Positions 2,820 to 13,343 of a DNA stretch of 15,245 nt are shown here, piece by piece. The translations under genes and the position numbers were made by a program. The DNA is taken from contig JBDKSP010000099.1 in assembly GCA_039680575.1 (NCBI GenBank), positions 1 to 15,245 on the forward strand, given 5' to 3'. The DNA is from Armatimonadota bacterium. Lineage in GTDB: Bacteria; Armatimonadota; UBA5829; DTLH01. The first letter of the stretch is position 1; each line of letters opens with the position of its first letter. The notes below the pieces were generated by a model. It had not been told where the DNA came from. It saw only the letters and a list, made by a program, of their open reading frames with translations, and searched no databases.

Positions 2820-2865
2820 GGTATACTCCGAAGCAACTTGCTTTCGGGCTAATTGAATATAGACG

Positions 2866-3010
2866 CCATAGACAGTAGGCATCCATTATGGATTTAATAC
2901 TCCTAGACAGGAGAGCCGACCGAGGCTGAAATAGTGAATGGTATAGTTGTTGGACTGCACCATAGAGATAATTTCGGGCTCGCCTGTCTAGGGCGGGCCC
3001 GTTGTGTTTT
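2866..3010 (+). promoter_or_regulatory. L10 leader (rplJL autoregulatory RNA) with terminator/antiterminator
   Basis: CCATAGACAGTAGG...TTAAT...CCGACCGAGG matches the L10_leader pattern; followed by a GC-rich hairpin (2975-3001) and TTGTGTTTT. Confidence 0.85.
2975..3010 (+). terminator. Intrinsic terminator (attenuator) in the rplJ leader
   Basis: CGGGCTCGCC (2975-2984) pairs with GGCGGGCCCG (2992-3001, one G-U), then TTGTGTTTT. Confidence 0.7.
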
Positions 3011-3047
3011 AAGTATATTATTGGCTTACCAGATTGGGGGTGAGTAG

Positions 3048-4408: not shown

Positions 4409-4444
4409 TATATTTTGCGTGTTTTCACTCACCAGGAGGACCAG

Positions 4445-7400
4445 ATGAAGGAAATTCAGCATAGAACCAAGCGTACACCGGGAATTATAGATATTCCGAA
4501 CTTGGTCGAGATCCAGCTTGATTCCTACAAGTGGTTTTTAAGAGAAGGACTTAGAGAACTCTTCCACAGTTTTTCCCCCATCCACGATTTTACGGGCAAT
4601 CTGTCGCTCGAGTTGGTAGATTACACTTTGGGCGACCCGAAGTATTCGGTAGAGGAATGCCGGAATCGAGATATGACATATGAAGCGCCTATCAAGGTCA
4701 AGGTAAGGCTTCAGGCCAAAGAAGGTGAGGTCATAGAGTCCGAGGTTTATCTCGGCGACCTGCCGCTCATGACCGAGAGAGGCACATTCGTGATAAACGG
4801 AGCAGAACGAGTGGTTGTAAGCCAGCTCGCCCGCTCATCGGGTGTATATTTTAAGGATACACTCGACTTTTCGGGACGTGTTCTTTATTTTGCTACGGTT
4901 ATCCCGAACGAAGGTGCATGGGTTGATATAGAGTCAGATGCGAACGATGTGATTTCTGTCCGTGTAGGCCAGACAAAGAAGTTTCCTCTGACTACGCTCC
5001 TGAGAGCGCTCAGTGCGTTTTCGGAGGCCTGCCCGGTAACGGAGATACTTCCGACCCGCGAGACTCAGGGGCGGATGCTCGTAGAGCCGATAGTCGATCT
5101 AGAGACTGGCGAGGTCCTTATAGATGCCGGAAAGACCATTACGGACAAATTGCTCGCTAAACTCGAAGGGCATAAGCTGCCCGAGAAGGCAGCGGTTGCT
5201 GCGGATTCTACCCCGTGCGATACAACGGGTGAGATTCTGGAACTTTTCTCAAAGAAGAAAAAGCTGAAGAACCCTACCAGGGACCAGTTGAGGGGCAGGA
5301 GGCTGTCCCACGAGATTATCGACCCAAAGACTCAGAAAGTCATACTAAAGGCTTATGCCAAGATTACCGAAGAGGCTGCCAAAAAGGTAGAAAACCTCAA
5401 GCTGGATGAAGTCGAAGTCCTCGATACGAACAGGTATGTCGAGGCAACAATCGATCAGGACGGCGCGAACAGCAAAGAAGAAGCGCTGATTGATATATAC
5501 CATAAGGTAAGGCCCGGAGATCCGGCAACACGCGACAGTGCGAAAAGCCTGCTTAACTCCATATTCTTCGATACCAGAAGGTACGACCTTGCCAGAGTCG
5601 GAAGGTATAAATTAAACAAGAAGCTCGGGCTCAACCTTCCCGAGTCCGTCCGCACCCTTACGAAAGAGGACCTGCTAAAGGTAATCGAGTATATAATCGG
5701 GCTGTCGGAATCCGGCGCTTTAGTTACTCACCTGGCTGTTTCGCGGCTGCACTCGCGTATCCCGGAGCTTGAAAAAGCTGTTAAGGATGCCGGAAAGGCC
5801 GCGACGCCCGAAGAGAAGGCAGAGGACGGCAAAATCAGCCGGCTCAAAGAGAGCCTGGAGGTTCTGCGGAACCTCAGGCTGGGCAGTATTTTGACCGAGC
5901 AGAAGATCAAGGGCATCAAAGAGCTTCTTGACCTGGTTCCAAACGGGCGCAGGCTCGTAGCTGAGACACCGGCGGAACTTTTCCCCGAGGAAACGGCTGT
6001 CAGGCTTTCACCATGCGATACCGATGACATCGACCACCTCGAAAACAAGAGAGTGCGGTCGGTCGGTGAGCTTCTCCAGAGCCAGCTCAGGATGGGATTT
6101 CTGAGGATGGAGAAGGTTGCGAAGGAGCGAATGACCAGCCTCGACCCTGAGAACGTAATACCGCAGGTCATCCTGTCGGTCAAGCCGGTCTCAGCGAGCA
6201 TAAAGAGCTTCTTTGGCTCCAGCCAGTTGTCCCAGTTTATGGACCAGACTAACCCGCTGGCCGAGTTGACTCATAAGAGAAGACTTTCAGCCCTGGGGCC
6301 GGGTGGACTTTCCCGCCAGAGCGCAAAACTCGAAGTCAGAGACGTTCACCACAGCCACTACGGCAGAATATGTCCTATCGAGACGCCTGAAGGCCCGAAC
6401 ATTGGGCTTATCGGCTCGATGGCCGTTCACGCCAAGATCGACGACTACGGTTTCATCAGATCTCCATACCGGGTCGTGAAAAACGGCAGGGTAACGAACG
6501 AGATCGTCTTCCTTCCCGCTGATGAGGATGATGAAGAGTACATCGCTCCGGCCAATACGCTTATAGACGAGAAAACCGGCAAGTTCCTGACGGATACCGT
6601 CCTCGTAAGGCACGAGAACGTCTACCCGCAGGTCCCGTCGGACAAAGTTACTTATGTAGACATCGCGCCGATGCAGATTATGTCGGTCGCTACAGCGATG
6701 ATCCCGTTCCTCGAGAACGACGACGCGAATCGCGCTCTTATGGGATCGAACATGCAGAGGCAGGCTGTCCCGCTTCTTCGCGCCGATGCTCCGATTGTGA
6801 GAACAGGCGTAGAGAGCCGCGCAGCACGCGATTCCAAAGCCGTCATCGTAGCAAAGCATGATGGCGTTGTGAAGAGCGTTACGGCCGAGAAGATTCTTAT
6901 CGAGACACTGGACGGGCAGGTAGACGAATACCATATGCTCAATATGCTTCGTTCCAACCAGGCCACCTGTGTTACTCAGAAGCCTATAGTAAAGTCTGGC
7001 AAGAGAGTAAGAGCCGGACAGGTCATAGCGGACGGTCCGTCGACTGATGGCGGCGAGCTTGCCCTCGGACAGAATGTGCTTTGCACCTTTATGCCGTGGC
7101 ATGGCTATAACTATGAAGACGCTATTCTGCTCTCTGAGAGAATGGTAATGGATGATGTCTACACCTCGATCCACATCGAAAAGTATGAGACGGAAGCCAG
7201 AGACACCAAGCTCGGTCCCGAAGAGGTAACAAGGGACATCCCGAATATCGGCGAGGACATGCTGAAAGACCTCGACGAGAACGGGATCATCCGAATCGGT
7301 GCGGAAGTCAGGCCAGAGGACATTCTAGTCGGAAAAGTAGCGCCTAAGGGCCAAGGCGAGCTTACAGCCGAGGAAAGATTGATTATCGCTATCTTCGGTA

Positions 7401-8962
7401 AGAAGGCCGAAGAGACCAGAGACGTTTCGCTCCGCGTTCCACACGGTGAAACGGGCAAGGTAGTCGATGTAAAGGTCTTCTCAAGGTTCAAATATAAGTG
7501 CACCAGGTGCGCTACTGTATATAATTTCTCGAAGAAGCCGGAAAGAACGCTCTGCGAGCGCTGCGACGGCGAGCTTTCGAGAGAGCCCGGAGATGAGTTG
7601 CCGGCAGGAGTCAACCAGCTCGTGCGCGTTTACATAGCCCAAAAACGAAAGGTTATGGAAGGCGACAAGATGGCAGGACGCCATGGCAACAAGGGAGTTA
7701 TCTCGAAGATCCTCCCGATGGAAGATATGCCGTATCTGCCAGATGGGACTCCGGTGGATATAGTCCTGAACCCGTTGGGCGTGCCGAGCCGAATGAATAT
7801 CGGACAGATCCTCGAGACACATCTTGGATTGGTCGGCAGGGAGCTCGGAGTAGCATTCCGCAACCCGATATTCCAGGGTGCTGTCGAGCGCGAGATACTT
7901 GCCGATCTCGATATTATGGCATGGAAACTCAAGTTGAAGGCTCTGAAGAGCTATGTGATATCAGACCTGAAGCTCGAAATCGAGTTCCCTGAGATTGACA
8001 GGCTCCAGTCGATGCTGGACCAAGCGCTGAAGAATGTCCAGGAAGTCTTCAAACAGAGTGATCTGGATGCGATAATGACGCCGTTCTATGACGCCTGGGA
8101 TTCCTGCATCGAGAGGATAAGAGCGAAGGTATCCGAGTTCGACGCGAGAGACCTTGAGATCATGAGCGCGAGAGTCGGAGCTTCTGCTGTAGTTGACGAT
8201 CCCGTGGCGGTTGCCGAGTCGCTTGTTAAGGATGAAAGCGAGGAGGAAACAGAGGAAGACGCTGAAACCGAGGCCAAGACTGAGGATGAAGGTCCGCTTC
8301 CTTACGCAGGTGAGCCTGCTCCCGCGGATTATGACATAACCGGAATAATCGACCATATTATCGATAACGTGATGCAGCGAGTCGGCCTCGAAGAGGTCAG
8401 AGAAGAGAACAAGGACGGCAGTGTAAAACGGCACTTGAGCGGTAAGATTCAACTCCACGATGGTTTGACCGGTCTTCCGTTCAATCAACCGTCTACTGTC
8501 GGTTATATCTACATGCTCAAACTCTCGCACCTTGTCGAAGACAAGATTCACGCCCGGTCGACTGGACCTTACTCGCTTGTGACCCAGCAGCCGCTCGGGG
8601 GTAAGGCGCAGTTCGGCGGACAGAGGTTCGGAGAGATGGAAGTCTGGGCGCTTGAGGCATACGGCGCGGCCTACACTCTCCAGGAGATACTGACTATCAA
8701 GTCCGACGATGTGCTCGGACGTGTCAAGACATATGAGTCAATCGTGAAAGGCGACAGCATGCTTGAGCCGGGCGTGCCGGAGTCATTCAAGATTCTTGTC
8801 AATGAGCTTCAGAGTCTCGGCCTCAAGGTCACCGTCGAGGATGACCGCGAAAGAGCGATCGATCTCAAGGACCATGAAGACGAGTTCGGTGAGGGAGATG
8901 GCGCTGGCAGGATCACTGCAAAGCGCAAACAGAAGGCTCTGGAACTCAAGGAGGATTTCTAA
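4445..8962 (+). CDS. rpoB: DNA-directed RNA polymerase subunit beta, 1505 aa, with several lineage-specific insertions
   Basis: [93 protein letters not shown] 4434-4439 before ATG 4445. Confidence 0.99.
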
Positions 8963-11900
8963 ATGGCTGACGCAAGAACCTTTGATAAGATACGTATAGG
9001 GATTGCATCGCCTGATGAGATAAGGGGATGGTCCTGCGGCGAAGTCAAAAAGCCGGAGACCATAAATTATCGGACGTTCAAGCCCGAACGCGACGGACTG
9101 TTCTGTGAACGGATTTTCGGGCCGGTCAAGGACTGGGAATGCCACTGCGGCCGGTATAAGAAGGTCAAGTTCAAAGGAATCGTATGCGACCGGTGCGGAG
9201 TCGAGGTAACGCGTTCCAAGGTCCGGCGCGAGAGAATGGGACACATCGAGCTTGCGTCTCCGGTATCACATATTTGGTACCTGAAGGGCGTACCGAGCCC
9301 GATGGCTCTGCTTTTGGACATCAGTCCGAGGCCGCTTGAGCGGGTTCTCTACTTTGCGTCCTATATAGTAACGCAGATCGACCGCCAGGCTATAAATGAT
9401 CGCCTGGAAGACATAAGAGGCGCTGCCAACGCAGAGATAGAAGAGATAGAGTCTCAGAAGGACGCGGCTATCGCCAAACTTCGGCGCGATCAGGTCAAAG
9501 ACCAGAAGGAACACGAAGAAGAGTGGTCAGAGGATGATGTCGAAGCCAGTAAAAAGCAGCTTTCCGACCGGATCAAGCAGGAAGAGAAAGATGCTGTCGA
9601 GCGGGTTGAGGAGACGCAGAACACTCTGAAGCTCATTGAGAGCCTTCAGCGAAGGGAACTGATAAACGAAGACCAGTACAGGGCGCTTGAGAGGTTCCTC
9701 GATGCCATCGGCCAAAGGCTGGATGTGAACCTTGCCGCATTGGTGAAAGCCGGCATGGGCGGCACCGCAATCAAGGAACTTCTAATGGAAGTCGATCTTG
9801 AGAAGATGGCTCGCGAACTCCGCAAGGAGATTTCGCAGACGCAGGGACCGAAGAGAGCCCGCGCAATCAAGCGGCTTGAGGTTGCCGATGCGTTCATCAA
9901 CTCTAAGAGCAGGCCGGAATGGATGATTCTCGACTGCATACCGGTCATTTCACCTGAGCTGAGGCCAATGGTACAGCTCGACGGCGGTAGGTTCGCCACA
10001 AGCGACCTGAATGACCTTTACAGAAGGATCATCAACCGGAACAACCGGCTTAAGAAGATCACGGATATTCGCGCTCCTGAGTCGATTATCAACCATGAGA
10101 AGCGGCTTCTGCAGGAGGCCGTGGACGCACTGATCGACAACGGCCGCCGGACAAGACCGGTAGTAGGCTCGAACAACAGGCCGCTCAAGTCACTTTCCGA
10201 TATGCTGAAGGGTAAAGAAGGCCGGTTCCGAAAGAACCTGCTTGGAAAGCGCGTTGACTATTCCGGCCGTTCGGTCATCGTAGTCGGTCCTCACCTGAAG
10301 CTGCATCAGTGCGGTCTTCCTAAGGAAATGGCTCTTGAGCTCTTCAAACCGTTCGTGATGAAGACACTGGTCGAGCGCCAGTACACGTCAAACATCAAGA
10401 CGGCGAAGAGAATGATCGATAAAATGAAACCAGAGGTCTGGGATGCACTCGAAGAAGTGATCCGGGAGCACCCGGTCCTTCTGAACAGAGCGCCGACGCT
10501 TCACAGACTGGGAATCCAGGCATTTGAGCCGGTACTGGTCGACGGTAAAGCGATCCAGGTTCACCCGCTGGTATGTCATGCGTTCAACGCGGACTTCGAC
10601 GGGGACCAGATGGCGGTGCATGTACCGCTCTCGACCACCGCTCAGGCGGAGGCGAGAGTGCTGATGCTTGCAACGCACAACCTGTTCTCTCCCGCGGACG
10701 GGCGGCCCGTCGTTGCACCGACCCAGGACATCGTTTTGGGGGCATATTATCTGACCCAGAAGAAGGATGTCAATGATGATTACGTGCATCCGATATTCGC
10801 CAATCAACAGGAAGCGATGTTCGCCTATAACAGCGGCGCTATCGGCTTGCATGACCCGATAAAAGTCAGGCTGGACTATAACGGCGAGCGGAAGATTTAC
10901 GAGACTGCGGTTGGCCGGTTGATATTCAACCAGATCCTGCCGGAGGGAATGGACTACGTAGACTATGAGATAGACAAGAAAGCGATGTCCAATCTCGTAA
11001 GTGACTGCTATGCCCAGTTCGGTGCAGAGAAGACTATCCTGCTTTTGGATGATCTGAAGGACATCGGGTACCGGTATGCGACGTTTGGTGGAATCACCAT
11101 CTCGATGACGGATATGGATATTCCCGGTAAGAGAGACGAGATCATATCCCGGACTGAAGATGAGGTCAAGAAACACAACAGATACCATCAGCGCGGACAT
11201 ACGACCGCTGCGGAAAGGAAGCAGAAGGTCCTTGACCTCTGGCTTAAAGCATCGGAAGATGTCGCTGAGGCTATTCTTGATAAGATCGATAAATTCAACC
11301 CGATCTATATGATGACCAACTCCGGTGCGAGAGGTAGTAAGAGACAGATCACACAGCTCTCCGGTATGCGAGGCTTGATGAGCGACCCGTTCGGAAACCT
11401 GATCGAGGACCTTCCCATCAAGTCGAACTTCCACGAGGGGCTGAACGTTCTCGAATACTTCATCTCGACACACGGTGCGAGAAAGGGTCTGGCGGACACC
11501 GCTCTTAGGACGGCGGACGCGGGTTACTTGACTCGAAGGCTTGTAGACGTCGCCCAGGATGTCATCGTTCGAGGTGACGACTGCGGTTCGGTCCAGGGTA
11601 TCTACGTAACCCAGATCGAAGAAGGCGGAGATGTCATAGAACAGCTGCACGAACGGATCGCCGGTCGCTATGCGCTTGAGGATATTTATCTTCCTGGTCA
11701 GGACGAGCCGATCGTCCGCGCAAGCGAGGAAATAACGGATGATGCAGCCAAGCAGATTGAAGACGCAGGTATCAAGAAGGTCGGTATACGTTCGCCGCTC
11801 TTCTGCGAACTGAGACACGGAATCTGCGCCAAGTGTTACGGCCGGGATATGGCTCTCGGCAAGTTGATCGAGGCTGGGACTGCCGTTGGTATTATCGCAG

Positions 11901-13288
11901 CGCAGTCTATCGGTGAACCTGGTACGCAGTTGACGATGAGAACCTTCCACACAGGAGGCGTCGCCGGAAAGTACCTGACAGGGGTTGCAGAGGTCAAGAA
12001 AAAGAAACAGGAGTCGCTCCGAGAACTCCACGACGACATTCGCCGCGGACTCGTATCATTCGAGGAAGAGGGAATGCCTGCAAGTGCTGAACGCGAGAGG
12101 GTCCGCGCTGTCCAGGCGGTACTCAAGGTCCTTGAGGACCAGGTGCGAGGACTCCTTCGGGTAGTAGAGCTCTTCGAGGCCAGAAAACCTAAAGGTCAGG
12201 CGATTATTACGGAAGTAGCCGGTAAGGTTGTGGACATCGATACCCGTGGCTTGAAGCGGGTGGTTATTCACTCGACAGCAGCGGGGTCTGATATTGCCGC
12301 GATGGCCGGTGAGGTCGCCGCTGAAGACATCATCGACCCGCAGACCGGCGAAGTGATGGTTTCAGAGGGCACAGACATCACCGAGCGGATAGCTCGAAAG
12401 GTAGCAGAGGCTCAAGTCCAGGAAGTCGTGCTGAGAAAGACCCACCTGGTGCCTCACAGAGGTAAGCTGAACGTCGAAGTCGGCGATGAAGTCCGGCCCG
12501 GCAACAGACTGACTGAAGGTCCGCTCGATCCTCAGAAGGTTCTGGAACTCCAGGGCGTGCACGGTATTATGGAGTATCTCGTTGGAGAGATCCAGAGCGT
12601 GTACAAGAGCCAGGGTGTCGATATCAATGACAAGCATGTCGAGATCATAGTCCGGCAGATGCTGAAGCGCCGCCGTGTTCTCGAAGCCGGAGATTGCAAG
12701 TTCCTTCCGGGACAGGTTGTCGATAAGTTCGACTTCGAGGATGAGAATACCCGGATAAGAGAGCAGGGTGGAGTCGAAGCTACCGCAGACTGGCTACTCC
12801 TCGGTATCACAGAGGCATCTCTTGCTACTGACAGCTTCCTGTCGGCTGCGTCGTTCCAGAAGACGACCAGAGTCCTGACGGATGCTGCCGTAAGGGGTAA
12901 GAGAGACAACCTGGTAGGTCTGAAGGAGAACGTAATTATCGGCCGGTTGATTCCTGCAGGAACAGGTCTGCCTCGCTTCAGGTTGCTTGAAGTCCTGGGT
13001 GAGGATAAAGAGCCGATATTTACGCCGAAGAGCCTCCTTGAGGTGCAACCGGAAGAGGAAGAGGAGCTGTTTGCGATCACTCCCCAGCCTGAGGAGATAG
13101 CTGTGGACAGCCTGCTGCCTGTCGGGGATGAAACCGAGACCGAAGAGGAGGAGCAGGTGGATACCCTGCTCAATGTCGAAGAAGAGATCACTTCGGATGA
13201 GGAAGACCTTGTCATACCCGACATCGACGAGGAAACTCCTGACCTCGACGAATCGACTATAGACGAAGACTCAGAGTCAGCAATCTAG
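8963..13288 (+). CDS. rpoC: DNA-directed RNA polymerase subunit beta', 1441 aa
   Basis: N-terminal Zn finger ([16 protein letters not shown]), catalytic NADFDGD (10586-10606), bridge helix [65 protein letters not shown] 8948-8954 inside the rpoB 3' end. Confidence 0.99.
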
Positions 13289-13301: not shown

Positions 13302-13333
13302 AAAGGCCGGATCTTTTGATCCGGCCTTTTTTT
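13302..13333 (+). terminator. Rho-independent terminator of rpoBC
   Basis: Perfect inverted repeat AAAGGCCGGATC-TTTT-GATCCGGCCTTT with a T7 run at 13327-13333. Confidence 0.93.
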
Positions 13334-13343
13334 AGCTATCAGC

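Follow-up and report, generated by a model that had tools for sequence, protein, structure and literature searches.

In Escherichia coli, the base of the RNA polymerase flap carries beta-i9, also called SI2 or beta-DR2, a region of ~105 aa with two long helices that occurs in Proteobacteria, Acidobacteria, Bacteroidetes and others (Opalka et al. 2010, PMC2939025, in the part of the paper available). [quoted passage not shown] Other sources, likewise available in part, report that E. coli SI2 contacts Rho (PMC9908020), that it contacts the 30S ribosomal proteins S2/S3/S5 (10.1101/2020.03.01.972380) and that it shifts with pausing (PMC9378689). The BEAN/HABAS survey covers the RNAP beta subunit of Armatimonadetes, as type 4*, and leaves out insertions of <50 residues; in the available part of that paper, the words 'zinc' and 'ribbon' are absent from the main text (Alvarez-Carreno et al. 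2024, PMC11515920).

Here we analyzed a window (the whole stretch of DNA studied, 15,245 nucleotides from an Armatimonadota bacterium) whose rpoB gene carries a much smaller, cysteine-rich insert at the beta-i9 site. A literature search that extended to neither supplements nor most subscription papers found no published description of this insert.

A 32-aa insert at the beta-i9 site of RpoB

The window contains tuf, rpmG, a tRNA gene, secE, nusG, rplK, rplA, rplJ, rplL, rpoB, rpoC and a GH130 gene, the small genes having been named by reading their translations. The host gene, rpoB (4445..8962, + strand), is intact and encodes 1505 aa when counted from the ATG at 4445, the ORF finder beginning instead at the TTG at 4415. 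The closest named records are from Armatimonadota. Translation, outgroup alignment and an AlphaFold2 (AF2) model together delimit a lineage-specific insert at 7487..7582 (+ strand), which occupies RpoB residues 1015-1046 and is predicted to be a zinc ribbon. Placed against solved structures, its breakpoints fall at B. subtilis beta 895/896 (between R895 and E896), and the match continues from E. coli beta ~1038 and from Thermus beta 810. This is the flap base, Taq 809-814 or E. coli 938-1042, so that the original prediction of an insert at the beta-i9 (SI2) site is borne out, and the insert belongs to the lineage-specific insertions of RNAP beta at this position. The length of exactly 32 aa also held: all 55 non-Armatimonadota loci compared (Actinomycetota, Bacillota) lack the insert and have zero residues between the same flanks.

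In-frame translation confirmed the motif C-x2-C-x14-C-x2-C, for which the chance expectation, at the Cys frequency of this genome, is ~0.0006 per 1505 aa. The first knuckle, CTRC (C1019, C1022; 7499..7510, + strand), has both Cys in 86/86 aligned Zn-type inserts. It is followed by a basic loop, SKKP (7529..7540, + strand), a candidate contact surface that is kept in Zn-type and Cys-free forms alike, and by the second knuckle, CERC (C1037, C1040; 7553..7564, + strand), whose first Cys is replaced by His in family f32. All 30 closest loci retain the four Cys. An assembly or frame artefact was rejected, as the ORF is intact and relatives carry the same insert. An intein or mobile element was likewise rejected on the grounds of the length of only 32 aa, the lack of any such Pfam match and the ordinary GC content. 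With a GC of 0.50 against 0.53 for the gene, the insert shows no sign of recent foreign DNA.

The partner subunit gene, rpoC (8963..13288, + strand), has both canonical Zn motifs intact (beta-prime Cys 60/62/75/78 and Cys 874/948/955/958); the predicted site in RpoB would therefore be a third Zn site. Three smaller features of the window were also recorded on the + strand: rpmG (L33) of the four-Cys type at 346-510, between tuf and the tRNA gene (590-663); an Rfam L10 leader at 2848-3016, before rplJ; and, directly 3' of rpoC at ~13304-13335, a terminator-like inverted repeat followed by a T run, read by eye.

Predicted fold and likeness to the adenylate kinase LID

An AF2 model of the C4 insert in its flap context, which contains no metal, was computed from 75 aligned flap-region rows. 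Over the insert, pLDDT was 88-94; residues 152-156, 162-165 and 180-184 of the model form strands continuous with those of the flap. A 41-residue piece folded alone gave the same three strands at a mean pLDDT of 83. In the predicted model, the two Cys knuckles sit on a beta-hairpin ribbon, the arrangement that defines a zinc ribbon. Foldseek gave no match at E 0.001, its top rows being adenylate kinase (ADK; E 0.13, TM 0.60), MCM (0.17, 0.66) and PolD (0.18). A wide structural search placed MCM first at Z 4.3, followed by Nob1, rubredoxin and aRF1; ADK was not among its best 50 rows, an absence that is uninformative. Zinc ribbons and rubredoxin-like folds account for all the top matches, at the weak scores that are usual for 41 residues. 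An ESM Atlas search yielded no usable match, and a Foldseek search with the whole flap returned RpoB matches only. Strands and fold matches thus bear out, at the level of prediction, the earlier claim of a zinc-ribbon-like fold. We consider the insert very probably a structural zinc ribbon, predicted by the model to be of a generic, three-strand kind that extends the flap-base hairpin. The four Cys would bind one Zn, which likely only holds the fold of the insert.

This architecture differs from that of beta-i9/SI2 proper, which has 105-143 aa and two long ladder helices. The Armatimonadota insert has 32 aa, an all-strand prediction and four Cys, is found here only in Armatimonadota and has no sequence likeness to beta-i9; the ribbon is also far shorter than the SI2 ladder of 60-65 A, and its partner may therefore differ. 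The insert is an independent occupant of the same permissive site and not a homologue of E. coli beta-i9. The beta-i9 site has been colonized independently by an unrelated fold. This extends the range of bacterial RNAP inserts by a new type of domain, and probably by a third structural zinc. The core mechanism of transcription is unchanged by this finding.

The original prediction went further, stating that the insert closely follows the LID of adenylate kinase. Both share two CxxC knuckles, a Tyr or Phe after the first, a loop Pro, a CGGEL-like end and the status of an inserted domain; unlike the LID (PF05191), the insert has neither the His of the lid nor the G ahead of the second knuckle, and is not part of a kinase. 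With FmdB-like Zn_ribbon_8 domains (PF09723) and generic ribbons (MCM, PolD, rubredoxin-like) it shares the Y-x-C-x2-C start and the ribbon fold, although those ribbons are proteins of their own or belong as domains to other enzymes. We asked whether the insert could be a captured copy of the LID, a reading that concerns its origin only and is compatible with the role preferred below. Searches of Pfam, of PDB sequences (E 2e-4) and with Foldseek all ranked ADK first for this insert. The Pfam comparison, which the original prediction had proposed as a check, put ADK_lid first at 20.0 bits, ahead of the SprT ribbon (18.2) and Zn_ribbon_8 (16.5). This score does not reach the curated cut-off of 26.6 for PF05191, and across 64 inserts Zn_ribbon_8 matched more (54) than ADK_lid did (39). 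The ADK lid of the same genome also scores below 26.6, at 18.8 bits, so the PF05191 cut-off is strict for this clade. The Zn_ribbon_8 cut-off of 34.4 was not reached either, the best relative seen (G047) scoring 33.2 bits.

Profile comparisons gave a similarly mixed picture. Scored with the insert profile, 29 ADK lids of the phylum had a median of 21.6 bits and 10 FmdB-like ribbons one of 14.7, while the lids and the FmdB-like ribbons score each other at 8-9 bits, which favours the lids. Against LID capture, profile-profile alignment with hhalign was a near tie (41.7 for ADK lids, 38.6 for FmdB-like ribbons), BLASTP gave no alignment of the insert to the ADK of its own genome, and the Cys spacing is x14 in the insert as opposed to mostly x16 in ADK lids. 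Of 58 matches among 1.84 billion representatives, six were RpoB and several were free-standing ribbons of 40-70 aa, and none of the 58 had the ADK P-loop motif (part of the reading of these matches covered 31/58). The match is also lost in Cys-free inserts, for which the hhalign probability was 7% against ADK lids and 0.2% against FmdB-like ribbons, with no ADK match in PDB or Pfam; convergence of these inserts on Zn-free ADK lids was considered and rejected, no match being found. What stands of the claim is that the LID is the best single named match; its closeness is doubtful, given the score below the Pfam cut-off and the near tie with FmdB-like and MCM ribbons. The likeness is real but modest, and it comes close to being no better than that to a generic zinc ribbon, the result that the original prediction took to speak against an ADK origin. 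Capture of a LID is thus a possible but doubtful origin.

Distribution and cysteine loss across Armatimonadota

The site was examined in 139 genomes of the phylum, of which G166 was set aside for want of a readable anchor. The insert is present in all of the 138 genomes with a readable site (44 family codes) and was never deleted there. A wider search with a 166-aa query matched 290/301 phylum genomes, and the 150 matches listed span 495-510 nt, compared with ~400 expected without the insert. An insert-plus-flank profile retrieved 102 proteins from 8000 candidates, all of them RpoB and, where named, from Armatimonadota, HR17 or unassigned. Searching with the region of a divergent member returned at least 120 proteins; 117 were new, 63 of them with the insert (the named ones from Armatimonadota) and 54 without it (the named ones from Actinomycetota or unassigned). 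The insert forms of f29, f16 and f10 match loci titled Capsulimonadaceae, Armatimonadaceae and Chthonomonadaceae, respectively, and an f13-like C4 form is named Fimbriimonadia. We suggest that the insert would have arisen by a single gain close to the root of the phylum, already with four Cys; for this poorly studied phylum it serves as a clean marker. One locus titled Janthinobacterium lividum (L125:1501-1755) contains an rpoB of Armatimonadota type, its insert being of the f29 form, and is probably mislabelled or part of a mixed bin.

The check for conservation of all four Cys in the clade, proposed with the original prediction, failed in part. Among the 138 genomes, 89 are C4, three are C3H (all f32) and 46 are Cys-depleted (<=1 ligand Cys); the latter fall in six families (f8, f10, f13, f16, f29 and f35), all of which retain the insert and which were oversampled, so that 46/138 is not a phylum frequency. 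In the Cys-free forms, the ligand positions are occupied by Asp, Ser, Thr, Gly and others. Family f8 (L046, L048, L049, L051, L052, L056, L061, L062) has a 48-aa variant in which a charged, helical-looking segment stands in place of the first knuckle, leaving one Cys and replacing half of the ribbon.

Trees built without the insert placed the Cys-depleted forms on separate branches with C4 sisters, and at least 10 state changes are needed on the 119-row tree. Within f13 and f16 (L186-L191, L202-L211, L218-L221), near-identical Cys-free alleles are interspersed with C4 ones on the RpoB tree, and the Cys-free alleles of different f13 genera are 91-97% identical. In AU tests on quick trees, with groups picked after seeing the tree and G248 left out of the f13 group, the Cys-free rows were rejected as one clade (p 0.0006 within f16, 9e-6 within f13), as were the f13 C4 rows (p 2e-5). 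G100, which groups with C4 genomes, has an insert 91-97% identical to other Cys-free alleles and only 47-56% identical to those of its C4 neighbours. In its 50 residues after the insert, identity is 0.96-0.98 to Cys-free and 0.84-0.92 to C4 sequences, and the upstream windows favour a C4 neighbour. These comparisons hint at short-tract recombination inside rpoB, which would fit the pattern in G100, f13 and f16; repeated regain of Cys, or tree error, could also produce such scatter.

The loss of Cys coincides in part with heme-copper oxidases. A COX1-family match was found in 112/112 genomes of f8, f10, f13, f16 and f29 and in 87/189 others, bearing in mind that PF00115 also takes in related NO reductases; the source genome has no such match. 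Among the genomes examined, after seven absent from the oxidase search set had been dropped, the oxidase was found in 46/46 Cys-depleted and 45/85 Zn-type genomes, and all 40 without a match conserve the four Cys. An independent-pairs test gave eight pairs, ~1 same, 0 opposite and 7 unchanged (p 1). The link of Cys loss to oxygen thus fails the phylogenetic test and is only a hint. A genome-wide purge of zinc ribbons was not supported, as the ADK lids of Cys-depleted genomes keep 3-4 Cys in 13/13 cases with a lid read (6 C4, 6 C3+Asp, 1 C3+Gly), in a comparison that matched 28/30 genomes and read 27 lids. Among the ADK loci (L255-L270), Asp occupies the second ligand position in the f10 lids and the fourth in those of G146 and G207.

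Candidate roles of the insert

Residue counts were taken from 86 Zn-type and 33 Cys-free inserts, a set that excludes f8 and inserts >37 aa. Five positions are kept in both forms: K2 (77/86 Zn-type, 32/33 Cys-free), Y/F3 (82/86, 33/33), K16 (75/86, 32/33), K/R17 (70/86, 33/33) and L30 (72/86, 31/33). Their retention without the ligand Cys points to a structural zinc and a selected surface, and not to sensing. Zn-binding (C+) and Zn-free (C-) forms also occur in ribosomal proteins and ADK lids. As in those proteins, the ribbon is kept here while its Cys ligands are replaced; unlike them, the change occurs within a single-copy RNAP subunit without paralogues. Judged from these alignments, the zinc looks structural and the surface of the insert looks to be under selection, and the Cys-free forms would keep the fold through their Asp, Ser, Thr or Gly substitutions. 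The conservation could, however, reflect folding needs alone. Together, the natural C4 and C3H forms and the Cys-depleted ones, of which at least five distinct sequence types exist, constitute a ready series for studying insert function and the loss of metal from a ribbon.

We hypothesize that the ribbon on the flap-base hairpin offers a transcription partner a small surface on which to dock, the zinc only holding the fold, a reading that we regard as somewhat probable. Its exposed aromatic-basic face would bind a factor that acts close to the base of the flap, a contact that is plausible by analogy with E. coli SI2. Among 33 full-length close RpoBs, mean pairwise identity was 0.77 for the insert (0.73 without Cys); the three other RpoB inserts reached 0.52, 0.53 and 0.39, the most conserved core blocks 0.88-0.96 and two further core blocks 0.78 and 0.68. 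That the insert is more conserved than the other three (0.39-0.53) likely supports docking. Against such a surface, net charge varies between forms (mean +2.3 for C4 and +0.5 for Cys-free, range -3 to +3), and f8 has dispensed with half of the ribbon; the partners of SI2 may also be out of reach for a structure so much shorter than the SI2 ladder.

The same conservation bears on whether the ribbon is a passenger, tolerated in a permissive loop without a partner and kept because clean deletion is rare and misfolding harmful. The site is dispensable in E. coli (PMC2939025, in the part available), the 55 outgroup loci manage without any insert, length varies between 30 and 53 aa, and Y3 and L30 may be conserved for the packing of the core. 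We nonetheless consider a passenger rather unlikely, given an identity that exceeds those of the protein's other inserts, the retention of exposed Lys residues in both the Zn-type and the Cys-free forms, and the absence of any loss in 138 genomes. Direct contact with nascent RNA or upstream DNA, in the manner of the beta-prime zinc-binding domain, would explain the conserved aromatic and basic residues and would agree with the many fold matches that are nucleic-acid-associated ribbons (MCM, PolC, ribosomal proteins). [quoted passage not shown]

The original prediction had also raised redox sensing. In a redox or zinc sensor, oxidation of the Cys or loss of Zn would unfold the ribbon and tune RNAP activity, and both the exposed position and the conservation of four Cys in the 40 oxidase-negative genomes are in keeping with this. 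Lineages that bear the oxidase, in which a sensor should be of greatest use, have, however, repeatedly lost the Cys and kept the module; the loss of the Cys from six families argues against sensing as the main job, and we regard this role as very improbable.

Returning to the docking model, a bolder version would have the phylum-diagnostic third zinc module dock a termination or coupling factor, with oxygen-respiring lineages repeatedly swapping in zinc-free versions that spread between genera by short-tract rpoB recombination. We view this combination as unlikely; if true, it would represent an exchangeable, selected cassette inside a core information-processing gene.

The polymerase genes carry further insertions. 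The three other RpoB inserts, which are likewise lineage-specific, lie at ~5021-5420, ~5705-6010 and ~7900-8430 of the window (+ strand; about aa 195-325, 425-530 and 1160-1330), the last containing an acidic low-complexity run. RpoB open frames of 1924 aa (G011:C96:13884-14405) and 1969 aa (G014:C108:65590-66102) exceed those of relatives by ~400 aa. The rpoC trigger loop (~11969-12148, + strand) has ~55 extra residues relative to the beta-prime subunits of B. subtilis and C. difficile, charged and helical-looking, at the site of SI3 in E. coli. This region had a near full-length match in 4/5 phylum genomes tried and a partial one in G221.
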